A DNA stretch of 57,929 nucleotides from a virus (taxonomy: Duplodnaviria > Heunggongvirae > Uroviricota > Caudoviricetes), in IMG/VR virus record IMGVR_UViG_2698536610_000002. One strand, given 5' to 3'. Below the pieces are notes generated by a model. That model saw only the letters and a program-made list of their open reading frames with translations, was not told the DNA's origin and searched no databases. This document shows positions 17,772 through 52,104 of the stretch, in pieces; the first letter of the stretch is position 1; every line of letters starts with the position of its first letter. Position numbers and translations under genes: made by a program.

Positions 17772-17948
17772 CGCGGGTTTTCGCTATTTATGAAAATTTT
17801 CCGGTTTAAGGCGTTTCCGTTCTTCTTCGTCGTAACTTAATGTTTTTATTTAAAATACCCCCTAAAAAGAAAGGAAACGACAGGTGCTGAAAACGAACTT
17901 TTGGGCCTCTGTCGTTTCCTTTCTCTGTTTTTGGCCGTGGAATGAACA

Positions 17949-18494: not shown

Positions 18495-21475
<2,981 letters not shown>

Positions 21476-21552
21476 AACCCTTGCTGCGTCTGGAATGTCG
21501 TTTTCCATGCTTTTGATGACCGTTCATCACCCTTCCAGTTTTTCGCGGTTTT

Positions 21553-21604
21553 GTGTATTGCAATGTGTATTGCAAATTGGCGATCGGGATGGGTGTGTAT
21601 TGCA
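21553..21604 (+). repeat. Three direct copies of gtgtattgca next to the left junction (candidate integrase arm-type sites)
   Basis: gtgtattgca at 21553-21562, 21565-21574, 21595-21604, just upstream of the island int start (21624). Confidence 0.5.
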
Positions 21605-21623
21605 AATCTCTTGAGGGCTTTTA

Positions 21624-22865
21624 ATGGCTATTGAAAACAAACTCAGTGACAAACTGTTAAAGAGTCTTGTCGGAAAACGGCAGGACAAACAAAAAACAAT
21701 AGCGGATGGGCGCGGGTTGTCTGTGCGTGTAAGCATGGTTGGGGGGATCAGCTTTGTTTTTTACTATCGTCTTGGTGGCAGGGAATCCCCTCCGGTATGG
21801 CTTACACTTGGTCGCTATCCTGACATGTCTCTTGCAACGGCCAGGCGCATGCGTGATCAGTGCCGTGAATGGCTAGCTGAAAATCTGGACCCCCGCAGGC
21901 AAATAAAACTTGCTGCCGAAAAAACTATGCAACCAGTGACCGTAAGGGATGCGCTGTTTTACTGGTACGACAATCACGCCACAACAGCCAGAAAAGAGCA
22001 TGAATATTTAATAAAACGATTTGAAAAGCATATCTTCCCCTATATCGGTGATATGGCTATAGAACAGTGCAAATTACACACATGGCTTACCGTCTTTGAC
22101 AGGATCAAAAAAAATGCGCCTGTTATGTCTGGTGCAATTTTTCTTGATATCAAACAGGCGTTGCGTTTTTGTCGCGTCAGGCAATACATCGCGTGCGATC
22201 CCTTTGGAGATATTAACGTAAGTTATGTCGGGCGCTCATCCGGTATAAGGGATCGCGTTCTTAATATCAATGAAACCGCTGATGTATGGTCTTATGCTTA
22301 CGGTAATAATTTGCTAACTCTGTCATCAATATATAACCGAAGAATAATGGTTATCTGCCTGGTGTTTGGTTGCCGACAGCAGGAGGCGAGGCTATCCACC
22401 TGGGACGAATGGGATTTAAAAAACTGGGTATGGACAGTCCCAAAAGAGCACAGCAAAAACAAGGAGGCTATAGTAAGGCCTGTTCCTGACGGAATAAAAC
22501 AATGGATCGTTAATCTTTACGCAGAAACAAAAAATCGCGGTTATGTTGTCGGTTGTGCTTTGCAAAGGGCGACAATAACAGGGGCTGCAAACAGAATATG
22601 CAGGCGTCTTGGTCATGATACTAATGGCTTGTGGTGCATACATGATTTCAGGCGCACATTTTCCACTACGCTTAATGATATGGGGGCGGATCCTTATATT
22701 GTCGAACTTCTTTTAGGTCATAAAGTGAAAGGGGTTGCTGGTGTTTACAATAAAAGCAGGCATATAAAGAAAAAACTTGAGGTGCTTAATATGTGGGTTA
22801 ATTACCTTAATACGATAGCAGGATTTAACAACAACGTTATCGAGCTTAATAAAGAGGTGGTGTGA
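21624..22865 (+). CDS. int: P4-type tyrosine integrase
   Basis: 413 aa; N-terminal arm-binding-like region GRGLSVRVSMVGGISFVFYYR; C-terminal HDFRRTF...LLGHK...GVYNKS catalytic motifs. Confidence 0.9.
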   Translation: MAIENKLSDKLLKSLVGKRQDKQKTIADGRGLSVRVSMVGGISFVFYYRLGGRESPPVWLTLGRYPDMSLATARRMRDQCREWLAENLDPRRQIKLAAEKTMQPVTVRDALFYWYDNHATTARKEHEYLIKRFEKHIFPYIGDMAIEQCKLHTWLTVFDRIKKNAPVMSGAIFLDIKQALRFCRVRQYIACDPFGDINVSYVGRSSGIRDRVLNINETADVWSYAYGNNLLTLSSIYNRRIMVICLVFGCRQQEARLSTWDEWDLKNWVWTVPKEHSKNKEAIVRPVPDGIKQWIVNLYAETKNRGYVVGCALQRATITGAANRICRRLGHDTNGLWCIHDFRRTFSTTLNDMGADPYIVELLLGHKVKGVAGVYNKSRHIKKKLEVLNMWVNYLNTIAGFNNNVIELNKEVV

Positions 22866-22866
22866 T

Positions 22867-23124
22867 ATGGCAATTTATTCTCTTGTTGATGAAAACGATT
22901 TGCGCACAATGAAGGACATTGATCGGTTCATTCGTGAAAAAGAGTGCATAGCACTTACCACGCTGGCAAACTCAACACGCTGGAAAATGGAGCAGGCAGG
23001 TAAATTCCCGCGACGTATCAAGATCGGTGAACGTGCTGCAGGGTATCGACTTTCAGAGGTTCAGGCATGGATCCGTGGTGAGTGGCATCCTGGATGGAAA
23101 CCTGGAAAAACAAAACAGCAATAA
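22867..23124 (+). CDS. alpA: AlpA-family transcriptional regulator/excisionase-like protein
   Basis: 85 aa; KFPRRIKIGERAAGYRLSEVQAWIRGEW pattern typical of AlpA. Confidence 0.7.
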   Translation: MAIYSLVDENDLRTMKDIDRFIREKECIALTTLANSTRWKMEQAGKFPRRIKIGERAAGYRLSEVQAWIRGEWHPGWKPGKTKQQ

Positions 23125-23180
23125 CCAGTAAATAATGCCCCTCATCACGAGGGGTTTTTTGTCTATAAGGTAAAAACGCG

Positions 23181-23759
23181 ATGAATAAAAATATTGCCGT
23201 GACGGGCAAGGGGTACGCTCGTCCAGTGAAAAAATTCTGCGATATTCGTGATCTCGTCGTTCTGCGCTTTGATAGTGTGAACGTTCGTGTGGTGTATCTG
23301 AACGGCGATCCGTGGTTTGTTGCAAAAGATGTTTGTGCTGCGCTGGAACTAACCAATTCGCGTACGGCGTTGCAGATGCTTGATGATGATGAAAAGGGAG
23401 TAAATTTAACTTACACCCCAGGAGGAAATCAGAATATGAGAATTATCTCTGAGTCAGGTTTCTACAAACTAATAGCCCGCAGCCGCAAAGCAACGACGCC
23501 TGGCACATTTGCTCATCGTTTCAGTAACTGGGTATTCAGAAATGTGATACCAGGTATCAGAAAAACGGGGACTTATGGTATCCCGTGGGGTGCATTACAG
23601 GATTTTTCCCGCCGTAAAGAGCAATATCAAATAAGTGCCAGCGAGAAGGGGAGGGAGCTACAGGCATGTAAGCGCAAAAAGCGTGAGCTGGAGGAAGAAG
23701 AAAAAACGCTGATACGTGAATATCAGCCTGAGTTTTACTTTGGTAACCGCATTCAGTGA
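23181..23759 (+). CDS. Bro-N domain protein (antirepressor-like)
   Basis: VRVVYLNGDPWFVAKDVCAALELTNSRTALQMLDDDEKG is a canonical Bro-N signature. Confidence 0.7.
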   Translation: MNKNIAVTGKGYARPVKKFCDIRDLVVLRFDSVNVRVVYLNGDPWFVAKDVCAALELTNSRTALQMLDDDEKGVNLTYTPGGNQNMRIISESGFYKLIARSRKATTPGTFAHRFSNWVFRNVIPGIRKTGTYGIPWGALQDFSRRKEQYQISASEKGRELQACKRKKRELEEEEKTLIREYQPEFYFGNRIQ

Positions 23760-24092
23760 CAAAACAAAGGCGACCGCAAAAGGGTCGCCAGTGGGAACAA
23801 GGGAAAACAAAAGCATCACCAACAATGCCACATTTGCGGCTGGTGGGCAATGTGATCAGTCAGATTTGGTTCGTTCCAAGGTTTGCAACGAGAGCTTTTT
23901 CCTGTGCTCTTTAAGGAATTTCTCAAGAGCAAACGAACAAGGTGCGAATCTTTCTGATTCATGTTCATGCGCTATATTTTTGCGTCGTCTCTTACGAGTT
24001 GGTGATGGTGTTTTGGTTGATTCTGTGTCGCTCATGGTGCTGTCCTGTAAAGCAATGCGCCTGCGTTCCTCAAACTATGGCGCTGATATTGG

Positions 24093-24398
24093 CTATTCAT
24101 GCTCTTTGACCTTGCGTCGCTGGAGTTCTTCACGCGCGACGGTGACGAGTTGCCCGATCTCCTCGGCTGCTTTGATGCCGATTTGTTCGACCTTAGCCAG
24201 GGCATCCAGTGACGACACAAGGGGATTTTCTCCGCTGCCTTCTGCTTGGCGGCGGGCTATTTCTCCGCGCATGGCGGTTACGATAAATCCGGCATTGCTT
24301 TCACCGTCCAGCTTAACGGATTCCATCCCTTGCATAACATCTAGTGGGACTCTGACAGTTGTCAGTTGTGATTTTGCGTTTTTGTTAGCCGTTGCCAT
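24093..24398 (-). CDS. Hypothetical protein divergent from the small-ORF operon (possible regulator)
   Basis: 101-aa ORF; start codon confirmed at 24396-24398; lies opposite a promoter/operator region. Confidence 0.45.
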   Translation of the reverse strand: MATANKNAKSQLTTVRVPLDVMQGMESVKLDGESNAGFIVTAMRGEIARRQAEGSGENPLVSSLDALAKVEQIGIKAAEEIGQLVTVAREELQRRKVKEHE

Positions 24399-24459
24399 TT
24401 CTGAAACTCCTAATCATCGGTGTGTTTCAGTATACACAAAAAAAGAAATACAAAAAGCC

Positions 24460-24497
24460 TTGACGTGTGTTTCATGCGCTCATAACATGAAACACAC
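24460..24497 (+). promoter_or_regulatory. Sigma70-like promoter overlapped by an inverted repeat (candidate operator)
   Basis: ttgacg (24460-24465), 17-nt spacer, taacat (24483-24488); inverted repeat gtgtgtttcatg ... catgaaacacac spans the -10 element. Confidence 0.5.
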
Positions 24498-24588
24498 CGA
24501 AAGGATTGTTGAAATACAAAGAGCAACGCCCCGCAGTGCTGGGAACACATACGGGGCGTCTAACCAACAACGTAAACTAGGAGCCGTT

Positions 24589-24786
24589 ATGGTTGCTGTA
24601 AATCATATACCACACCTTGTACACACACAAACGGCCTTTGTGTGGCGTTTTCTGGCACTGAGTGCCGGAGAATCTCAAATCATCCACGTAACCGCCTGGA
24701 CGGAACGCGAAGCGCGTAGCCGTTGCCCGTCCGGTTGTGTTGCTGTATTCGCTGCAAAAATCCGCCAGGGAGTGAGTCATGCTTAA
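24589..24786 (+). CDS. Small hypothetical protein (first gene of the island operon)
   Basis: 65-aa ORF with SD aggag 7 nt upstream; stop overlaps next ORF start. Confidence 0.45.
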   Translation: MVAVNHIPHLVHTQTAFVWRFLALSAGESQIIHVTAWTEREARSRCPSGCVAVFAAKIRQGVSHA

Positions 24787-24964
24787 AACCTTCCGTGTAT
24801 TTGCCCGAGCTGTTAACCCAATAGGCCACGCAATTGGTATCGCTCAGAATGTGAAGGCTGTTAATGTTCAGACGGCTATTGCTGCGGTGAGAAGCGAATC
24901 ATCAGAATATGGCTTATCACAAGTCATTATTTCAGCAGTGTATGAATTAAAAGAGGTGCATTAA
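24779..24964 (+). CDS. Small hypothetical protein
   Basis: 61-aa ORF; start/stop overlap neighbours (translationally coupled chain). Confidence 0.4.
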   Translation: MLKTFRVFARAVNPIGHAIGIAQNVKAVNVQTAIAAVRSESSEYGLSQVIISAVYELKEVH

Positions 24965-25155
24965 TGCAGGAAATTACATTACACGAAGCCGCTGAACGTG
25001 CGCACCAGACAGAAATTATTTGCCGCCTTCTTGAGGTATACCCGAACAAAATTACAGATGCTGATATATCCGCACTGGCGAGCCTACTGGCGCGTCTTTC
25101 GGGAAGTGTCGCTAGTTTTTTGATTGAGGAAGAAAGTAAGCTGGTGGGGGATTAA
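24964..25155 (+). CDS. Small hypothetical protein
   Basis: 63-aa ORF in the coupled chain. Confidence 0.4.
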   Translation: MQEITLHEAAERAHQTEIICRLLEVYPNKITDADISALASLLARLSGSVASFLIEEESKLVGD

Positions 25156-25377
25156 ATGAATACAGAACGGGAAGTCTTTTTTAAATTGTTAGCATGTGCA
25201 GAAAGTTCATTAACTTTAAATAATTCAGCAAAAGCAATATTAAATATGTGGCTTGATTGCATAAATGACAATGAAGATGCAAATATTGCTTATGGCCTGT
25301 TGTCACTTATTGATGAATCAGCAGAAAAACTCAATGACGCAATAAATAGTGCCCTGCTATCAAATAAGTCGAGTTAA
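25156..25377 (+). CDS. Small hypothetical protein
   Basis: 73-aa AT-rich ORF in the coupled chain. Confidence 0.4.
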   Translation: MNTEREVFFKLLACAESSLTLNNSAKAILNMWLDCINDNEDANIAYGLLSLIDESAEKLNDAINSALLSNKSS

Positions 25378-25394
25378 GTCGAGGAATAAATAAT

Positions 25395-25694
25395 ATGGAA
25401 ATGAAAAATTCTGGCTTTATTGCCAGCGGCCCCGCTCGAACTGAATTTATGAACGGCGATATTTACCGCGATAAATACGGCGGCACGGTAACGATTAAAG
25501 GCGTGGCAGAACGGCGCATCACTTACCGCCGTGAGGGGTATAGCTATGACTGCGTGATGCCTGTTTATCAGTTCCGGCGTGATTTTTCCCTGGTATATGC
25601 CACACCCCGCAGTAAGCCCATCAGCAGGGAAAAAGCGTGGGGAAATATCCAGAAAATGAAAACCATGATTAACGGATTCAGAGGTAAAAAATGA
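25395..25694 (+). CDS. Hypothetical protein
   Basis: 99-aa ORF; stop overlaps the primase start. Confidence 0.45.
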   Translation: MEMKNSGFIASGPARTEFMNGDIYRDKYGGTVTIKGVAERRITYRREGYSYDCVMPVYQFRRDFSLVYATPRSKPISREKAWGNIQKMKTMINGFRGKK

Positions 25695-27445
25695 AACTGG
25701 CACCGAACGTAAAACAGCAGTCACGCGGCATAAAACACAAAGGAACAGAAGTCATTATTTTTGCGGGTAGTGATGCCTGGGCACACGCGAAACAATGGCA
25801 GGAACATGATGCGCGTATGGCCGGAGATAATGAGCCTCCTGTGTGGCTTGGGGAGCAGCAGCTATCCGAACTGGATAATCTGCAAATTGTGCCGGAAGGC
25901 CGAAAATCAGCACGCATATACAGGGCCGGATATCTTGCGCCTGTAATGATAAAGGCGATTGGTCAGAAGCTGGCGGCAGCAGGCGTACAGGATGCAAATT
26001 TTTATCCTGAGGGTATGCACGGCCAGGAGGTGCAGAACTGGCGCGAATATCTGGCCCGTGAACGCCAGAATCTTTCTGATGGTCTGGTCATTGAGCTTCC
26101 GGTAAAGCAAAAGGCGCAACTTTCGCAGATGGCGGACAGTGAGCGCGCGCAGTTGCTTGCCGATCGCTTTGATGGCGTTTGCGTACATCCTGAAAGTGAA
26201 ATCGTTCACGTATGGCGCGGCGGGGTATGGTGTCCGGTCAGCACAATGGAACTTAGCCGCGAAATGGTGGCGATCTATTCAGAGCACAGGGCCACTTTCA
26301 GCAAGCGCGTAATCAATAACGCCGTGGAAGCGTTAAAAGTTATTGCCGAACCAATGGGCGAGCCGTCTGGCGATTTGCTGCCGTTCGCCAATGGTGCGCT
26401 TGACCTGAAAACGGGGGAATTTTCCCCGCACACGCCGGAGGACTGGATCACCACGCACAACGGCATTGAGTACACGCCACCAGCACCAGGGGAGAACATC
26501 CGCGATAACGCGCCAAACTTTCATAAATGGCTTGAGCACGCAGCCGGAAAAGACCCGCGCAAGATGATGCGTATATGTGCCGCGCTGTACATGATTATGG
26601 CGAACCGGTACGACTGGCAGATGTTTATTGAGGCCACCGGAGACGGCGGGAGCGGTAAAAGTACATTCACACACATAGCCAGCCTTCTGGCAGGGAAACA
26701 GAACACGGTAAGCGCTGAAATGACATCGCTTGATGATGCTGGTGGACGTGCGCAGGTTGTCGGGAGTCGTCTTATCGTCCTGGCTGACCAGCCGAAATAT
26801 ACAGGCGAAGGAACGGGCATCAAGAAAATCACAGGCGGCGACCCCGTGGAAATTAACCCGAAATATGAAAAGCGTTTCACGGCGGTAATCAGGGCGGTGG
26901 TGCTGGCGACCAACAACAACCCGATGATATTCACCGAACGGGCCGGAGGTGTGGCACGTCGTCGCGTGATTTTCCGTTTCGACAATATCGTCAGTGAGGC
27001 CGAAAAAGACAGGGAGCTACCGGAAAAGATTGCGGCTGAAATCCCCGTTATTATCCGCCGATTGCTGGCGAACTTTACCGACCCTGAGAAGGCACGGGCT
27101 TTACTACTGGAACAGCGTGACGGTGATGAAGCACTGGCAATAAAGCAACAGACGGATCCGGTTATTGAGTTTTGCCAGTTCCTGAATTTTCTGGAGGAAG
27201 CGCGCGGCCTGATGATGGGTGGCGGTGGTGATTCAGTGAAGTACACGACCAGGAACAGCCTTTACCGCGTCTATCTGGCGTTTATGGCATACGCGGGCAG
27301 GAGCAAACCGCTAAACGTGGCTGAGTTCAGCAAGGCCATGAAGCCAGCGGCGAAAGTTTACGGGCATGAATATATTACGCGAAAAGTTAAGGGAGTAACG
27401 CAGACCAACGCAATTACAACAGACGATTGCGACGCGTTTTTATAA
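25691..27445 (+). CDS. P4-alpha-like primase-helicase (D5/P4-family C-terminal NTPase)
   Basis: 584 aa; Walker A TGDGGSGKST and Walker B-like RLIVLAD; size and position typical of satellite replication proteins. Confidence 0.85.
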   Translation: MKLAPNVKQQSRGIKHKGTEVIIFAGSDAWAHAKQWQEHDARMAGDNEPPVWLGEQQLSELDNLQIVPEGRKSARIYRAGYLAPVMIKAIGQKLAAAGVQDANFYPEGMHGQEVQNWREYLARERQNLSDGLVIELPVKQKAQLSQMADSERAQLLADRFDGVCVHPESEIVHVWRGGVWCPVSTMELSREMVAIYSEHRATFSKRVINNAVEALKVIAEPMGEPSGDLLPFANGALDLKTGEFSPHTPEDWITTHNGIEYTPPAPGENIRDNAPNFHKWLEHAAGKDPRKMMRICAALYMIMANRYDWQMFIEATGDGGSGKSTFTHIASLLAGKQNTVSAEMTSLDDAGGRAQVVGSRLIVLADQPKYTGEGTGIKKITGGDPVEINPKYEKRFTAVIRAVVLATNNNPMIFTERAGGVARRRVIFRFDNIVSEAEKDRELPEKIAAEIPVIIRRLLANFTDPEKARALLLEQRDGDEALAIKQQTDPVIEFCQFLNFLEEARGLMMGGGGDSVKYTTRNSLYRVYLAFMAYAGRSKPLNVAEFSKAMKPAAKVYGHEYITRKVKGVTQTNAITTDDCDAFL

Positions 27446-27454
27446 TTTTTTGTA

Positions 27455-27700
27455 AAAGCCATCTACCCCATCTACCTGAACAAAATAAACTCATATTATT
27501 CAACATGATAAGTGGGTATAGGGCTAGGTAGAAGGCTAATAAAAGCTCTCTACCTCTTCTACCTGATTTTATCAGTTTCAGGTAGCAGGGTAGACGGCAG
27601 GTAGAGGAGTCAAAAAGCTATCTACCCGCTGAAAGCCGCGCCATTACTGACATGATGAGCATTCGGGTAGATGGGTAGAGGGGGGGAGGCACAACTAAAA
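27455..27700. repeat. Iteron cluster (repeated ctacc/ggtag-containing motifs) downstream of the primase: candidate island ori
   Basis: catctaccccatctacctg, gctaggtagaagg, ctctacctcttctacctg, caggtagcagggtagacggcaggtagagg, ctatctacccg, cgggtagatgggtagaggg. Confidence 0.6.
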
Positions 27701-27731
27701 ACTTTTTAAACGAGGGGGGGGGTGAAAATAA

Positions 27732-28046
27732 ATGCGCATACATAAAAATCACTTAACAAACATGCCAGCCGAAAACATGAATCAGGGGCGACAAATGACC
27801 AAAATTCGCAGAGACAGAACACAGGCAAAATATAAAGCGTTAGACATGACAGAGCTTTCCTTAAAGGTGGCAATCAAAGCGATAGACCACCACACACGGG
27901 CAGGATACGCGAAGGAACATCCCGACCTGATAAGCGCATTCATGACCACAGCAGCGGCAAACTTTGCCACGCTGACAGAACGGGAGATTGCCGAAGCGGA
28001 ACAGGTGACAACCATCAATGTTAAAACCGGAGAGCAGACAGCATGA
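27732..28046 (+). CDS. Hypothetical protein
   Basis: 104-aa ORF preceded by a G9 homopolymer (27714-27722). Confidence 0.4.
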   Translation: MRIHKNHLTNMPAENMNQGRQMTKIRRDRTQAKYKALDMTELSLKVAIKAIDHHTRAGYAKEHPDLISAFMTTAAANFATLTEREIAEAEQVTTINVKTGEQTA

Positions 28047-28465
28047 CAGCACAGATAGCGGCTTACGGGCGGCTGGTGGCTGACCCGCAGTTAAAGACCA
28101 CCAGCAAAGGGACACAAATGGCGATGGCGAGTATGGCGGTTCCCCTGCCGTGCAGCCAGGCAGATGACGGAACGGCGACGATGTGGTTATCCGTCCTGGC
28201 GTTTGGCAGACAGGCCGACGCACTGGCAAAACACCACAAAGGCGAACTGGTGAGCGTGGCGGGTAACATGCAGGTAAGCCAGTGGACAGGCCAGAACGGC
28301 GAAACGCGGCGGGGCTGGCAGGTTATCGCAGACAGCGTAATCAGTGCGCGAACGGCGCGACCGGGCGGCAAAAAAGGCCAGCAGGGGCAGGCCACTGACG
28401 CACTGAACAGGGCAAAACAACAGTCGGGGAATGATGATCCGTACGGCGATAATATACCGTTTTAA
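28043..28465 (+). CDS. SSB-like single-stranded DNA-binding protein
   Basis: 140 aa; Gly/Gln-rich tail ending in the acidic DDPYGDNIPF motif characteristic of SSB C-termini. Confidence 0.55.
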   Translation: MTAQIAAYGRLVADPQLKTTSKGTQMAMASMAVPLPCSQADDGTATMWLSVLAFGRQADALAKHHKGELVSVAGNMQVSQWTGQNGETRRGWQVIADSVISARTARPGGKKGQQGQATDALNRAKQQSGNDDPYGDNIPF

Positions 28466-28676
28466 ATTCTACAAACAAAAAGATGCCGGAAAAAAATAGA
28501 TTTTCCGGCATGCTACATAAATCCCGACCAAAGGAAGTAAATACATTAACACGAATTATCAGCACTGAAGTTGTTACGGCATATTTTATACAACATTGCA
28601 CTTGGTTGCATGTATTCGCATAGCAGACATCGGTAATAGAATATATTCACAATTATTTGTAATGAATGTAAAGAGG

Positions 28677-29723
28677 ATGAGTATGGTTGATTTATATTCG
28701 CCTACACAGCTTGTGCAGGTGGCTAATGCTGAAGATGTGCAAAAAAAATTAAATGCGTTGTTTACCAGTTTGTTTTTCACTCGCTCGGTAATGTTTGAAT
28801 CGAGAGACATTATTCTTGATACGATCGACGATCCAAATATCCCGATCGCGGCGTTTTGCTCTCCTATGGTGGGCAGTAAAGTTTCACGAGATGAGGGATA
28901 CGAATCAAAAACAATTCGTCCAGGTTATATGAAGCCGAAAAGCAGCATTGATCCAAATAAGTTAGCTGTGCGCCCTGCTGGTGTGTCACCTGAGCAATAC
29001 AATGCTTTTGGGGCGCGTAATATTAAAGTTAAACAGGCGATTGTAAATCAGGCTAAAGCTATTCGTGCACGTATTGAATGGCTTGCTGTTCAGGCAATCA
29101 CAACGGGGAAAAATATCATTGAGGGCGATGGTATTGAACGTTATGAGCTGGACTGGAATATAAAACCACAAAATATCATCACTCAGTCTGGCGGTACTGA
29201 GTGGTCAGGTAAGGATAAAGAAACTTTTGATCCAAATGATGATATTGAGAGCTACGCAGAATTTAGTGAGGGCGTCACTAATATCATCATTATGGGTGGT
29301 AATGTATGGAAGAAATACCGTTCATTCAGAGCGATAAAAGAGGCTTTGGATACCCGTCGTGGTTCTAATTCCGAACTGGAAACGGCCCTTAAAGACCTTG
29401 GTGATTCGGTGAGTTTTAAAGGGTATATGGGCGATGTTGCGATTGTTGTTTACAGCGGGCGTTATACCGACGAGGACGGAACAGAAAAACATTTCCTTGA
29501 TCCTGATTTGATGGTGCTTGGCAATACGGCTCTTCAGGGGATTGTCGCCTATGGCGGTATTCAGGATCCGGAGCTAATCCGAATGGGGCTGACTAAAGCC
29601 GAACTTGCACCGAAAAACTATATTGTGCCTGGTGATCCGGCTATTGAATATGTGCAGACACATTCAGCACCACAGCCAATACCGGCCCGCATCAATCGTT
29701 TTGTTACCGTTCGCATTGGCTAA
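28677..29723 (+). CDS. Major capsid protein E homologue (island copy)
   Basis: Starts MSM like lambda gpE; blocks ITQSGGTEWS, LDTRRGSNSELETALKDLG and YMGDVAIVVYSG align with the helper gpE at 34793-35818. Confidence 0.8.
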   Translation: MSMVDLYSPTQLVQVANAEDVQKKLNALFTSLFFTRSVMFESRDIILDTIDDPNIPIAAFCSPMVGSKVSRDEGYESKTIRPGYMKPKSSIDPNKLAVRPAGVSPEQYNAFGARNIKVKQAIVNQAKAIRARIEWLAVQAITTGKNIIEGDGIERYELDWNIKPQNIITQSGGTEWSGKDKETFDPNDDIESYAEFSEGVTNIIIMGGNVWKKYRSFRAIKEALDTRRGSNSELETALKDLGDSVSFKGYMGDVAIVVYSGRYTDEDGTEKHFLDPDLMVLGNTALQGIVAYGGIQDPELIRMGLTKAELAPKNYIVPGDPAIEYVQTHSAPQPIPARINRFVTVRIG

Positions 29724-29732
29724 GGGGGAGCA

Positions 29733-30074
29733 ATGCCTACTCATTACACTGAACTCATGGCTGGCACTGAAGCACTGGTGACTACGCTGGGGATATTTTC
29801 AGCTAATAAAGGGGTAATTCCTGCATTTACGCCACTGATGCAGGAAGATGCAACAGGTGCACTGGTGGTATGGGATGGTTCGAGCGTAGGTAAAGCGGTT
29901 TATGTTTCCGCTGTACAAATCGACACAGCGAAAAAAACACAGGCACAGGTTTATAAGACAGGTGTTTTAAATGTTGATGCTCTGAACTGGCCTGAGTCTG
30001 TAAAAGAACTGTCGGCAAAGGTTGCCGCGTTTGTTGGCTCAGGTATTTCTGTTCAGCCGCTGGCTCGTGTGTAA
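29733..30074 (+). CDS. Head decoration protein D homologue (island copy)
   Basis: 113 aa; FTPLMQEDATGALVVWDGSSVGKAVYVSAV and AAFVGSGISV align with lambda gpD ([30 protein letters not shown] ... AFAGTAISI). Confidence 0.8.
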   Translation: MPTHYTELMAGTEALVTTLGIFSANKGVIPAFTPLMQEDATGALVVWDGSSVGKAVYVSAVQIDTAKKTQAQVYKTGVLNVDALNWPESVKELSAKVAAFVGSGISVQPLARV

Positions 30075-30085
30075 AGGGGGATACA

Positions 30086-30469
30086 ATGCAGAATCATTAC
30101 AATGACCTTAAGCCAATTGCCGAAATGATGTATCCGGATCCAGCAGTAGAGGAATTAAAGGCTATTGCTGACAAAATGCGTTTAAGTGAACGCCTTGTTG
30201 ATATGAATCAGGTGATGGAACTTACTACCCTTAGCCGTCGCACATTGCTAAACCTTGAGGCTCGCGGAGAGTTCCCCGAACGCGTACAGGTTACGGAAGG
30301 GCGTAAGGCCTGGTATTTAAGTGAAGTGATCGACTGGATAAACAATATTCCTCGATCTTCTGAATATTGCCGCGTATCTGTCCCAAAAAAGCCAGATGCG
30401 GCGCTATGCCTCAAGATTGAGCGTGTACGTCGCAATGCACGGGATGGTCGCTATAAGTTGATTGGTTGA
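30086..30469 (+). CDS. HTH protein (AlpA/MerR-like) upstream of the island cos
   Basis: 127 aa; LTTLSRRTLLNLEARGEFPERVQV...WYLSEVIDWINN resembles an AlpA-type HTH. Confidence 0.45.
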   Translation: MQNHYNDLKPIAEMMYPDPAVEELKAIADKMRLSERLVDMNQVMELTTLSRRTLLNLEARGEFPERVQVTEGRKAWYLSEVIDWINNIPRSSEYCRVSVPKKPDAALCLKIERVRRNARDGRYKLIG

Positions 30470-30525
30470 TGAAATTAGGGCCCGTTCTGGCTGGCGGGTC
30501 CTTTCCGGCGATCCGGTAGGCTACG

Positions 30526-30537
30526 GGGCGGCGACCT
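30526..30537. other. Second cosN (gggcggcgacct) belonging to the island
   Basis: gggtcctttccggcgatccggtaggctacg gggcggcgacct cgcgggttttcgctatttatga: near-identical to the helper cos for ~75 nt, then diverges in the cosB region. Confidence 0.8.
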
Positions 30538-30685
30538 CGCGGGTTTTCGCTATTTATGAGCCTTTTTCGGGTGCTGGTGGTGGTTTTGTTGTTCGCTCTA
30601 TCTCTATGAATAAAAAGGAAAAGATAAAGCCAATACACCAACCTGAAACATTACTTAAGTGGGGATATTGATGAAATCGCACCTG

Positions 30686-31213
30686 ATGAACAAAAAAAAC
30701 ATGGCGCAAAGCTGCCGTGTAAGTGCGACAGCGTTCGACAAGTGGGGAGTGACTCCCGTTGAACGTAAAGGCCGCGAGGCGTTTTATGATGTTGCCAGCG
30801 TAATAGACAATCGGGTTAGCAATGCAATTAACCAGATTACAGACGACAAAGGCGAGATTGATGATGATGAACTCCTACGAGTCAGGATCAGATTGCTGAC
30901 AGCACAGGCAGAGGCGCAGGAGCTTAAAAACGAGCGCGAACGCGGCGACGTTATTGATACAGCGTTTTGTATATACGTGCTTTCAAAATTGGCGAGTCAG
31001 ATTTCTTCAATCATGGACAGCCTGCCGCTTGCCATGACAAGGAAGTTTCCCGACATGAAGCCGTCTATGCTGGATGGACTGAAAAAAGAAGTTATCAGAG
31101 CCTGTAACGCATGCGCAAAACTTGACGAAAACATACCGCTGATGCTGTCCGATTATCTGATGGAAACTGCCGGAAACGTACCGGATAAGTTGCAGCCGAA
31201 TAAAGATAAGTAA
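30686..31213 (+). CDS. Nu1-like small terminase subunit (island copy, divergent N-terminal DNA-binding domain)
   Basis: Start set at MNKKNMAQ (Nu1 MEVNKKQLA); C-terminal ELKNERERGDVIDTAFCIYVLSKLASQISSIMDSLPLAMTRKFP aligns with Nu1 ELKNARDSAEVVETAFCTFVLSRIAGEIASILDGIPLSVQRRFP. Confidence 0.8.
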   Translation: MNKKNMAQSCRVSATAFDKWGVTPVERKGREAFYDVASVIDNRVSNAINQITDDKGEIDDDELLRVRIRLLTAQAEAQELKNERERGDVIDTAFCIYVLSKLASQISSIMDSLPLAMTRKFPDMKPSMLDGLKKEVIRACNACAKLDENIPLMLSDYLMETAGNVPDKLQPNKDK

Positions 31214-31224
31214 CGTAGTACGCT

Positions 31225-31506
31225 ATGACTGAATCCGAAATACTGCGATTAATCCGCCGTGCTTGTGGAATCAGCAAGCAGCATGACGAACAGGCCACGC
31301 AGCCGGACAGCGTGACCGCAGATAATTATGTGCGTGTAGTGGCTGAGGTGATGCGCCGTGACGGTATTGAGCTTAACGGCGTGGATATGCGCAACATACG
31401 AACAAGAGTCCTTGAGTTGCTGGCATATCGTCGCCGTTCTCAACAACGGAGGGAGAGCGCGAAAAATACTTACCAGTGGAAGAAGCCGGAACGATTGCGG
31501 CGGTAA
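31225..31506 (+). CDS. Hypothetical protein
   Basis: 93-aa ORF, Arg-rich C-terminus. Confidence 0.4.
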   Translation: MTESEILRLIRRACGISKQHDEQATQPDSVTADNYVRVVAEVMRRDGIELNGVDMRNIRTRVLELLAYRRRSQQRRESAKNTYQWKKPERLRR

Positions 31507-31521
31507 CTTGCTGATATTCCC

Positions 31522-31879
31522 GATAACGCAAAATTGCGCTGGCTGACTTGTTGCATTGCAAAAAGTTAAGCAGGAAGGCACGGCCTGTAAGATGGGATGC
31601 AGTAAGTAGTTCAAGGCTACCTTGTGCTGGCACGCACAGTTAAGCCGTCGGTGCTGGATATCCCCCACTGGGGGAAAAGCTGGCTACATCCCTCACATCT
31701 GAGGACTGATAACGCGACATTGCGCTGGCTGGCAAAGTGCAAAATTGCACGATGGCCTAACCCATTGATTATTTCGAAAACCTGCAATGCAGGAAATCGG
31801 GGAAGTAAGCCTAAGCTATTAATTGTTTCGAAAACCCCCATTGGGGGATGTCGGGAAAGTAAGACTAACCCATTGATTC
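31522..31879. repeat. Non-coding array of repeated hairpin-containing modules
   Basis: gataacgc(a/g)a(a/c)attgcgctggctg twice (31522, 31708); tandem ~55-bp units tt(a/g)tttcgaaaacc[hairpin]g(a/g)tcggg(g/a)aagtaag(c/a)ctaa at 31770 and 31825; cccattgatt flanks at 31761 and 31870. Confidence 0.55.
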
Positions 31880-32220
31880 TTCCACAATCCTCAATTTGAG
31901 GAGGCCGGAACGTCTACATAGCTGCATCGCCGTAATGATGATTCAGCCCACCAGCCAAATCAGCACAGCAACGACAGAATAGCCCGACACAGAAAAACCA
32001 CGAATATGGGGTTTTTGTTATGACATGGTCATGATGACCACTCATACAAAACAGGTAAAGCCCACCAGCCTGATTAAAGGTTAACCGGAAAAAAGCCAGG
32101 TATCCAATCTCGATATGGGGATCCCTATATCGACATTAACGCCCACTAAAACTGTGCATATATGCATAGAAAAAGCATCCACCAGCTTTATGACGGATGC
32201 CGCTCATCTTATAAATAATC

Positions 32221-32242
32221 GTGTATTGCAGTGTGTATTGCG
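32221..32242 (+). repeat. Two copies of gtgtattgc(a/g) next to the right junction
   Basis: gtgtattgca 32221-32230 and gtgtattgcg 32233-32242, same motif as at the left end. Confidence 0.5.
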
Positions 32243-32321
32243 ACTCCTTTAAACGATAGGTCTGAGCATTCGTAATGTACTGTTTTTAAATTTTATTTTT
32301 TCCTGTCTTTTCATAAAGGCG

Positions 32322-33095
32322 ATGTATGCCGCCACCATTGAGAGTGAGCTGGATACGCAGTCAGCGATGGATTTTATTCTGGGCGCGAACAGTCAGGAGC
32401 AGCGGGAAAGGCTGACCGGCTGGATTGGTGAAATTGCCGCGTATTACGCCGCAGCACCGGTCCGTCTGGGAGGCGCAAAAGTGCCGCACCTGATGCCGGG
32501 GGACTCACTGAACCTGCAGACGGCTCAGGACACGGATAACGGCTACTCCGTGTTTGAGCAGTCACTGTTGCGGTATATCGCTGCCGGGCTGGGTGTCTCG
32601 TATGAGCAGCTTTCCCGGAATTACGCCCAGATGAGCTACTCCACGGCACGGGCCAGTGCGAACGAGTCGTGGGCGTACTTTATGGGGCGGCGAAAATTCG
32701 TCGCATCCCGTCAGGCGAGCCAGATGTTTCTGTGCTGGCTGGAAGAGGCCATCGCTCGCCGCGTGGTGACGTTACCTTCAAAAGCGCGCTTCAGTTTTCA
32801 GGAAGCCCGAAGTGCCTGGGGGAACTGCGACTGGATAGGCTCCGGTCGTATGGCCATCGATGGTCTGAAAGAAGTACAGGAAGCGGTGATGCTGATAGAA
32901 GCCGGACTGAGTACCTACGAGAAAGAGTGCGCAAAACGCGGTGACGACTATCAGGAAATTTTTGCCCAGCAGGTCCGTGAAACGATGGAGCGCCGTGCAG
33001 CCGGTCTTAAACCGCCCGCCTGGGCGGCTGCGGCATTTGAATCCGGACTGCGACAATCAACAGAGGAGGAGAAGAGTGACAGCAGAGCTGCGTAA
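32322..33095 (+). pseudogene. B: Portal protein B, C-terminal 257 codons, separated from the N-terminal part by the island
   Basis: MYAATIESELDTQSAMDFILGANSQEQRERLTGW... continues lambda gpB exactly from the residue after ...SAIVKA. Confidence 0.85.
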
Positions 33096-51520: not shown

Positions 51521-52104
51521 TGGCATTCAGAATGAGTGAACAACCACGGACCATAAAAATTTATAATCTGCTGGCCGGAACTAATGAATTTATTGGTGAA
51601 GGTGACGCATATATTCCGCCTCATACAGGTCTGCCTGCAAACAGTACCTATATTGCACCGCCAGATATTCCGGCTGGTTTCGTGGCTGTTTTCAACAGTG
51701 ATGAGGCATCGTGGCATCTCGTTGAAGATCATCGGGGTAAAACGGTTTATGACGTGGCTTCCGGCGACGCGTTATTTATTTCTGAACTCGGCTCATTACC
51801 GGAAAATGTCACTTGGTTATCCCCGGAAGGGGAGTTTCAGAAGTGGAACGGCACAGCCTGGGTGAAGGATACGGAAGCAGAAAAACTGTTCCGGATCCGG
51901 GAGGCGGAAGAAACAAAAAACAGCCTGATGCAGGTAGCCAGTGAGCATATTGCGCCGCTTCAGGATGCTGCAGATCTGGAAATCGCAACGGAGGAAGAAA
52001 CCTCGTTGCTTGAAGCCTGGAAGAAGTATCGGGTGTTGCTGAATCGTGTTGATACATCAACTGCACCTGATATTGAGTGGCCCGCAATCCCTGTTATGGA
52101 ATAA
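51520..52104 (+). CDS. tfa: Tail fibre assembly chaperone Tfa
   Basis: 194 aa [48 protein letters not shown]... matches lambda Tfa. Confidence 0.9.

Follow-up and report, generated by a model that had tools for sequence, protein, structure and literature searches.

A candidate ribbon-helix-helix repressor and a phased array of putative operator sites at the replication operon of a phage satellite

The left (early) operon of the satellite P4, which we take to run in the order P_LE, seqA, CI RNA, kil/eta, epsilon, orf151, orf106 and alpha, is among the closest described relatives of the locus presented here. Phage-inducible chromosomal islands (PICIs) of Gram-negative bacteria are another. Induction of EcCICFT073 requires AlpA, which also suffices for it and is expressed in response to the helper, and a repressor was left "unclear" (PMC6092414). 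The published picture of Gram-negative PICIs is therefore that of an activator switched on by an unknown helper signal, with the repressor question left open (PMC6092414). Published PICI work lists YlcI/YnfO only as an accessory "prophage-associated protein" and mentions C4 and isrK RNAs in some PICIs; in the literature that we searched, no function was assigned to YlcI/YnfO in satellites, and no operator array, allele classes, leader hairpin or RHH (ribbon-helix-helix) repressor was described for Gram-negative PICIs. Here, we analyzed a 57,929-nucleotide (nt) stretch of DNA from a virus of the Caudoviricetes (IMG/VR record IMGVR_UViG_2698536610_000002), referred to in its entirety as the window, in which a 190-bp intergenic region separates the gene for a 101-amino-acid (aa) YlcI/YnfO-family protein from a divergent operon that ends in a P4-family primase. 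The region is most likely the immunity and replication switch of a Gram-negative PICI of the helper-embedded subtype that sits within a lambda-like prophage, in its portal gene. We put a probability of roughly 60% on the reading that the small divergent protein, which is predicted to be a ribbon-helix-helix (RHH) protein, shuts off the replication operon via five evenly spaced sites over two back-to-back promoters.

The intergenic region and its repeated sites

The intergenic region holds two predicted back-to-back promoters (Table 1). The original prediction had proposed a near-consensus -35 and -10 with 17-nt spacing ahead of the operon, a 12-bp inverted repeat overlapping them, and a divergent 101-aa gene, and all three were found as described. 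The rightward promoter matches the consensus at 9 of 12 positions, its spacer falls within the 16 to 18 nt of sigma-70 promoters, and its position is conserved, with a TTGAC-type -35 and a -10 at a constant place in all 11 of the allele classes introduced below. On the minus strand, TATACT (24434-24429) is likely the -10 of the repressor gene's own promoter, judging from its placement; a TAnnnT hexamer lies 29 to 32 nt ahead of the divergent gene's start codon in 10 of the 11 classes. The inverted repeat (GTGTGTTTCATG) pairs 24465-24476 with 24486-24497 perfectly over 12 bp, can be extended to 26 nt at 81%, and reaches across the spacer and -10 of the rightward promoter to its expected transcription start. 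It goes beyond chance: the whole window has just two places with a perfect 12-bp inverted repeat whose loop is no longer than 30 nt, compared with a mean of 0.07 in simulated windows, 5% of which contain any.

The inverted repeat belongs to a larger array, which the original prediction did not include, of five 9-bp sites, each differing by no more than two mismatches from TGTGTTTCA or from its complement. The sites start at 24421, 24444, 24466, 24488 and 24510 and are thus spaced by 23, 22, 22 and 22 bp. Four site matches cluster in 98 bp, and the array holds three of the four exact copies in the window. Sites S3 and S4 bracket the rightward -10 and S1 and S2 the leftward -10, so that the inverted pairs are centred on the -10 elements, and S5 lies just downstream. 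The operator class to which the window belongs extends from Escherichia to Xenorhabdus and Photorhabdus. Within it, conservation reaches 0.93 to 0.97 at the sites and hexamers compared with 0.57 for the stretch between S3 and the -10; members from Xenorhabdus and Photorhabdus have a weaker S5 or none.

For a comparative test, we used 168 loci encoding relatives of the 101-aa protein, collected from genomes, metagenomes and viral contigs. Their proteins fall into 11 alleles of the N-terminal beta-strand region (for example, LTTVRV, MTTIRV, SLTARI, QISIRI, MKNIRF and QLNARF), and the C-terminal 40 aa are common to different classes. In every class, repeated 9-mers lie at -40, -17, +6, +28 and approximately +50 from the TTGAC-type -35, the 9-mer being TGTGTTTCA, TGTATATCA, TGTAAGACA, TGTGATTCA, GGTATTCAC, GGGATTCA or of the AAATACACAC type depending on the class. 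At least nine distinct site sequences accompany the 11 N-terminal alleles, and the DNA-binding allele covaries perfectly with the site sequence. This matches the pattern expected if repressor and operators are exchanged as one specificity cassette.

Neither AlpA nor the primase follows the site class in this way, which argues against two other roles for the repeats. They could be binding sites for AlpA or another activator that switches the operon on, given that AlpA activates PICI genes in EcCICFT073 (PMC6092414) and that AlpA-family genes are always nearby. We consider this very improbable. Identical AlpA alleles are found with two or three site classes, one site class is found with at least six AlpA alleles of 35 to 100% identity, and the location of the sites over the spacer, -10 and +1 suits repression and not activation; on this mixing of alleles, AlpA itself is rejected as the repeat binder. 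The repeats could likewise be iterons of a replication origin, bound by the primase/helicase. Here, one site class occurs with primases of 20 to 100% identity, with a different type of replicase, or with none detected, so that repeat and replicase do not covary and an iteron-type origin is rejected on replicase mixing. The 22-bp phasing is typical of iterons and a replicase is encoded in the same operon, but the sites form inverted pairs centred on -10 elements, and the origin of EcCICFT073 was placed with the rep gene region rather than in this intergenic region (PMC6092414). We regard this explanation as the least probable of those considered.

The divergent protein and the proposed switch

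The 101-aa protein is a member of the YlcI/YnfO_N family (NF041551, NCBIfam; 63.3 bits versus a cutoff of 30, aa 9-50). Its AlphaFold model has an extended N-terminal segment, helices at residues 19-28 and 35-52, and a long helix at 59-100, and the N-terminal beta-strand with two helices resembles solved RHH proteins. The sequence-family evidence for this fold is otherwise weak, and we therefore treat the RHH DNA-binding fold as predicted: the only related Pfam match was PF07704 (E = 0.022, 16 bits versus a cutoff of 28), profile searches of the PDB found no RHH protein, and hhalign aligned just 14 columns with Mnt. The C-terminal half (24093-24270) carries a conserved motif, PLVSSLDALxxVExIGxKAAEEI, that is common to the operator classes unchanged. 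This half also gave a weak helix-hairpin-helix-like match to the (HhH)2 domain of Hef (1x2i, E = 0.0037), where AlphaFold places one long helix.

We considered whether the protein could be an RHH antitoxin paired with the 59-aa ORF (open reading frame) encoded downstream of it, with the repeats serving only autoregulation and control of icd and primase being incidental. A type II toxin-antitoxin pair would have a conserved toxin gene next to the RHH gene, and none was found: the 59-aa ORF has no Pfam or NCBIfam match and no toxin family match, and, although 51 of 72 class-1 loci carry it, just 3 of 37 class-2 loci do. EcCICFT073 has a homologous small ORF at the corresponding position. Three of the five sites lie on the rightward promoter and leader, at conserved positions in every class, and we judge the antitoxin explanation to be improbable.

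Taking the sequence anatomy, protein families, predicted fold and covariations together, we infer DNA binding, repression, promoter use, translational coupling and a route of induction as follows. The leftward promoter would produce the 101-aa RHH protein and then the 59-aa ORF, and the rightward promoter would produce the leader RNA, an Icd-like protein, three variable small ORFs, a DUF4222 protein and the P4-type primase. The RHH protein, of which its weak promoter would yield little, would bind as dimers to the five 9-bp sites, which lie about two helical turns apart. Occupancy of S1 and S2 would autoregulate its synthesis, and occupancy of S3 and S4, together with S5, would deny RNA polymerase access to the replication operon during quiescence of the island, with both -10 elements occluded. 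The common C-terminal helix would probably link the dimers. Specificity would reside in the N-terminal beta-strand region and be exchanged with the sites as one cassette, giving heteroimmune classes. Each dimer would place a two-stranded sheet in the major groove of the repeated sites, a mode of binding to which the covariation of allele and site lends indirect support. Once repression was lifted, the packed ORFs would be translated serially up to the primase, and the island would replicate.

Derepression might come about through an anti-repressor, for which the Bro-N protein of the island or a protein of the helper are candidates, through AlpA-dependent events, or through read-through of helper late transcription. 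Bro-N is a candidate by family name only, and just about half of the loci of the window's operator class have its gene. Antiterminated late transcription of the helper could, by analogy with the islands of Tommasini et al. (PMC10111431), run through the switch; this is conceivable because the island is co-oriented with the helper late gene in which it lies.

Several points weigh against a maintenance repressor of this kind. The promoter match by itself is within chance, with four such sites in 23000-28000 compared with 6.5 +/- 2.3 in shuffled sequences, and the leftward promoter is without a good -35. The covariation of allele and site could be due in part to physical linkage, since the sites adjoin the segment that encodes the N-terminus. 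Overexpression of AlpA alone induces replication of EcCICFT073, in which no repressor was found (PMC6092414), and a repressor model must explain how AlpA bypasses it. The EcCICFT073 relative of the protein is without the C-terminal helix yet its sites keep the 23-bp spacing, which makes the role of this helix in linking dimers uncertain.

Repression of rep operons by RHH proteins is well known from plasmids, where CopG controls rep genes. The 101-aa protein could accordingly repress the rightward promoter as a CopG-like feedback or copy-number controller after induction, with quiescence due mainly to the absence of AlpA, and both the coverage of its own promoter by the sites and the EcCICFT073 results on AlpA (PMC6092414) fit this role. 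The near-consensus -35, the sites over the -10 and +1, and the heteroimmune-type classes have the look of an immunity repressor; sequence alone cannot separate the two roles. We hold the copy-number role to be unlikely, though it is the strongest of the competing explanations, and favor the maintenance repressor.

The operon, its leader RNA and the surrounding island

The operon comprises five small ORFs of 65, 61, 63, 73 and 99 aa, followed by the 584-aa primase, and a Shine-Dalgarno-like motif precedes each start codon. The junctions are, in order, an 8-nt overlap, a 1-nt overlap, a direct abutment, a 17-nt gap and a 4-nt overlap. The proposal that the five ORFs overlap one another up to the primase was thus right for four of the five junctions and does not apply between ORF4 and ORF5, where the gap lies in an otherwise tightly packed series.

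By its profile match, ORF1 falls in the Icd-like/P4 Kil family, to which the P1 Icd type also belongs. The same model (NF033153) detects P4 kil, a 65-aa ORF just upstream of epsilon and inside the legacy "cI" ORF (E = 1.6e-21, 76.1 bits; also phrog_1743), and the Icd-like ORF of EcCICFT073 (69.9 bits). The Icd-like families phrog_1743, phrog_6196 and phrog_6928 are labelled "transcriptional repressor", a label that comes from the legacy P4 "cI gene product" ORF; we consider it misleading and not a statement of function, given that P4 immunity is carried by RNA. A terminator-like hairpin lies inside ORF1 (24624-24644, CACACAAA..TTTGTGTG), followed by GCGTTTT, and its T-run encodes conserved WRF residues. 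It is probably coincidental as a terminator because it is not conserved in other icd types.

At the other end of the operon, the primase is 40% identical to aa 324-756 of P4 alpha, the C-terminal two thirds, and scores 108.5 bits with TIGR01613, just below the cutoff of 108.7. Because the first (Icd-like) and last (primase) genes are homologous, the operon is, on sequence grounds, the counterpart of the P4 left operon. The genes between them differ: ORFs 2 to 5 have no PHROG or tblastn similarity to P4 epsilon, orf151 or orf106. ORFs 2 to 4 are variable cargo, absent from 45 to 46 of the 72 loci of the window's operator class (45 for ORF2). ORF4, with 32% GC compared with 47% for the island, is missing in most related loci and looks like recently acquired cargo within the operon. 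ORF5 (DUF4222) is regularly found just upstream of a primase or helicase, as in EcCICFT073, CT265 and the O103 and O157 islands. The original prediction described a repressed early/replication operon whose small proteins might include derepression or helper-interference functions. The first part gains support from the operator-overlapped promoter, the divergent gene as the best repressor candidate, and the covariation of allele and site in the 168 loci; the second part found none, with ORF1 being Icd-like, ORF5 a DUF4222 protein and ORFs 2 to 4 variable cargo. The P4 homology and the leader RNA described next, like the array of sites, go beyond it.

The leader ahead of ORF1 forms a hairpin with an outer stem (24526-24533/24552-24559) and an inner stem (24536-24538/24546-24548), followed by the near-invariant tail UCUAACCA. 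In an alignment of 24 distinct sequences, 88.5% of cells were paired compared with 31 to 51% in slid controls, six pairs showed compensatory changes, and the covariation score was reached in none of 500 shuffles. The evidence for the hairpin is covariation and not stability: the folding energy of the whole leader is not unusual (z = -0.77), the loop is not conserved, and there is no U-tract. With a covariance model of the leader, each island gave exactly one match and P4 gave none, and the hairpin is present in EcCICFT073 (46.9 bits) and in an O103 island that is without a YlcI gene.

The leader matched no Rfam family, C4 and isrK included, when the window and 24300-24900 were scanned. The C4/CI antisense RNA models (RF01695, RF01394 and RF03163) gave no match at E up to 10 in 24300-24900 and none at the gathering score in the window, and the same search detected the positive controls P4 (74.9 and 60.8 bits) and the O103 island; an immunity RNA of the P1/P4 type is thereby rejected. 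A nut-like signal would predict a second copy of the hairpin elsewhere in the island, where none was found. By inspection, the hairpin loop had no consistent complementarity to the icd ribosome-binding site. The short hairpin around the Shine-Dalgarno motif that is clear in other variants is negligible here (-0.1 kcal/mol). A processing, stabilization or antitermination signal are ideas for the role of the leader.

The island is approximately 10.9 kb long (about 21431-32309) and interrupts the lambda-like portal gene; a prophage late gene is thus split, as in helper-embedded PICIs, with the terminase large subunit and W genes upstream and the island co-oriented with the surrounding late gene. 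About seven portal codons are present twice, at the two island junctions. The gene order is int, alpA, a Bro-N gene, the divergent pair, primase, single-stranded DNA-binding protein (SSB), and capsid and decoration homologues. This is the PICI layout, in which int and the adjoining alpA (PF05930, E = 5e-14) share one orientation at the left end and a replication module that includes a P4-type primase comes next. Homologues of sid, psu, delta and epsilon were not found, since tblastn with P4 proteins returned only relatives of alpha, vis and int, and their absence rules out a P4-like satellite.

Parts of the module match 1,565 of 5,426 complete E. coli genomes, and blastn of 24400-24800 against phage genomes gave no match. 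Strain CT265 carries a near-identical regulatory module in an island for which the interrupted gene is that of the major capsid protein. In the late zone of the window's island, a second, longer AlpA-family gene (30086-30469) encodes a 127-aa protein that is 37.5% identical to P4 Vis and closer to Vis than the int-adjacent AlpA is. The only other perfect inverted repeat of at least 12 bp with a short loop in the window (17870-17925, AAAGGAAACGACAG...) is found immediately upstream of the terminase genes, and it probably represents the lambdoid prophage's cos-proximal hairpin. A full-length match to the Rfam family IS009 lies in the distal part of the prophage (51863-52061, plus strand, 220.9 bits).

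Table 1. Positions of the predicted regulatory elements, operon genes and island landmarks in the window
Feature	Position	Strand	Details
101-aa YlcI/YnfO-family protein, candidate repressor	24093-24398	-	Predicted RHH domain about aa 10-53, C-terminal helix aa 59-100
S1, TGTGTTTCA	24421-24429		Over -10 edge and start of leftward promoter; within-class conservation 0.93
Leftward promoter -10, TATACT (inferred)	24429-24434	-	Between S1 and S2
S2, AGAAATACA	24444-24452		Degenerate inverted copy in leftward promoter spacer; other classes have a perfect class-specific copy there
Rightward promoter -35, TTGACG	24460-24465	+	TTGAC-type hexamer in all classes; conservation 0.97
S3, TGTGTTTCA	24466-24474		In -35/-10 spacer; left arm of inverted repeat; conservation 0.97
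Rightward promoter -10, TAACAT	24483-24488	+	-10-like hexamer equally distant in other classes, e.g. TATAAT in class 2
S4, TGAAACACA	24488-24496		Over -10 edge and expected transcription start; right arm of inverted repeat; conservation 0.96
S5, TGAAATACA	24510-24518		Early transcribed leader; conservation 0.83
Structured leader RNA	24517-24566	+	Precedes ORF1; hairpin, then tail
ORF1, 65 aa, Icd-like	24589-24786	+	NF033153, 63.7 bits versus cutoff 25; phrog_1743
ORF2, 61 aa	24779-24964	+	phrog_3672, E = 8e-45; start overlaps ORF1 end by 8 nt
ORF3, 63 aa	24964-25155	+	phrog_1478, E = 2.5e-34; TAATG overlap with ORF2
ORF4, 73 aa, AT-rich	25156-25377	+	phrog_2196, E = 1e-28; ATG abuts ORF3 stop codon
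ORF5, 99 aa, DUF4222	25395-25694	+	PF13973, E = 2e-23; after 17-nt gap, own Shine-Dalgarno motif
P4-family primase/helicase, 584 aa	25691-27445	+	D5_N, E = 3e-16, and DUF5906, E = 5e-10 (Pfam); ATGA overlap with ORF5
59-aa basic ORF	23856-24035	-	Downstream of repressor gene in leftward operon; phrog_21027, E = 5e-15
Terminator-like hairpin and T-run	23769-23789	-	7 pairs (6 G-C), then TTTGTTTTGT; would end leftward operon
Portal aa 1-279	20594-21430		Left of island
int	21624-22865		Co-oriented with alpA at island left end
Terminator-like hairpin, strong, bidirectional	23137-23155		Directly after alpA
Bro-N "anti-repressor"-type gene	23181-23759		After the post-alpA hairpin
Portal aa 273-533	32310-33092		Right of island

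Comparison with known satellites and repressors

The locus resembles the P4 left operon in having an early promoter, a leader, an Icd-like first ORF, small ORFs and a P4-family primase, with an AlpA/Vis homologue upstream. P4 immunity is an RNA system, made up of a C4-family CI RNA and an isrK-like seqA ahead of kil (Rfam), neither of which is in the window; the window has instead a divergent candidate protein repressor with putative operators and a different leader hairpin. The immI region of phages P1 and P7 (c4 RNA, icd, ant) likewise has an icd-type first ORF after a structured RNA, translationally linked to downstream genes. The leader in the window, however, has no match to a C4 model, and the downstream genes encode replication functions and not an antirepressor. 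In an island at tRNA-Pro of E. coli O103 ML775 (locus L175, 3430-3945), the leader hairpin and a truncated icd lie behind a TTGACA promoter that has two ATGGTAATTACC repeats. Further on, this island has an isrK-type element, then a C4-type RNA, then another icd-like gene, which is intact, so that two immunity cassettes stand in tandem. By carrying both kinds of leader, this island shows the control cassettes to be interchangeable modules.

Among PICIs, the window's island shares with EcCICFT073 and other Gram-negative members the order int-alpA, a variable zone, YlcI/YnfO divergent from an Icd-like gene, small ORFs, DUF4222, primase, and a late zone with capsid homologues. EcCICFT073, which is the PICI studied by experiment, encodes a short 59-aa relative of the 101-aa protein, and GTGGGCCACACC is repeated 23 bp apart across its -10. 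The splitting of a prophage late gene is shared with the helper-embedded PICIs of Tommasini et al. (PMC10111431).

As for the protein, its predicted beta-alpha-alpha fold and the short direct and inverted repeated sites over promoters recall omega of pSM19035, Arc and Mnt of P22, and CopG, and Mnt would also share the arrangement of an N-terminal RHH domain with a C-terminal helical extension. It differs from these RHH repressors in giving only weak alignments at the level of sequence families and in having sites 22 to 23 bp apart, compared with the contiguous heptads of omega and the 11-bp half-sites of Arc. In the pathogenicity islands of Staphylococcus aureus (SaPIs), which are Gram-positive PICIs, the Stl/Str arrangement also has a divergent repressor gene facing the replication operon of a phage satellite. 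Stl, however, is a helix-turn-helix protein unrelated to RHH, and defined helper proteins inactivate it; the island in the window has no known inducer.

A broader proposal, which we put forward tentatively and consider doubtful as a whole, is that YlcI/YnfO-type RHH proteins are the missing master repressors of enterobacterial PICIs and the counterparts of SaPI Stl. They would form at least nine heteroimmune classes, each with a phased five-site operator, and would replace the CI-RNA immunity of P4. Induction would occur by inactivating or overrunning the repressor, through an anti-repressor from helper or island or through helper late read-through, and the leader hairpin with its UCUAACCA tail would be a new regulatory RNA element.

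If true, a class-specific protein repressor would add the missing "off" half of the PICI switch. It would also explain how related islands could be controlled independently within one cell and would supply the DNA sites and protein alleles involved, in elements that are common given the number of E. coli genomes matched. The same operon from an Icd-like gene to a primase would then be governed by an RNA cassette in P4 and some islands and by a protein cassette in others, pointing to a modular exchange of control systems among phage satellites. The familiar part of this comparison is a divergent repressor with operators on the replication operon of a satellite; what would be new is that the repressor is of the RHH type, that it has five phased sites, and that it takes the place of RNA immunity in an operon homologous to that of P4.

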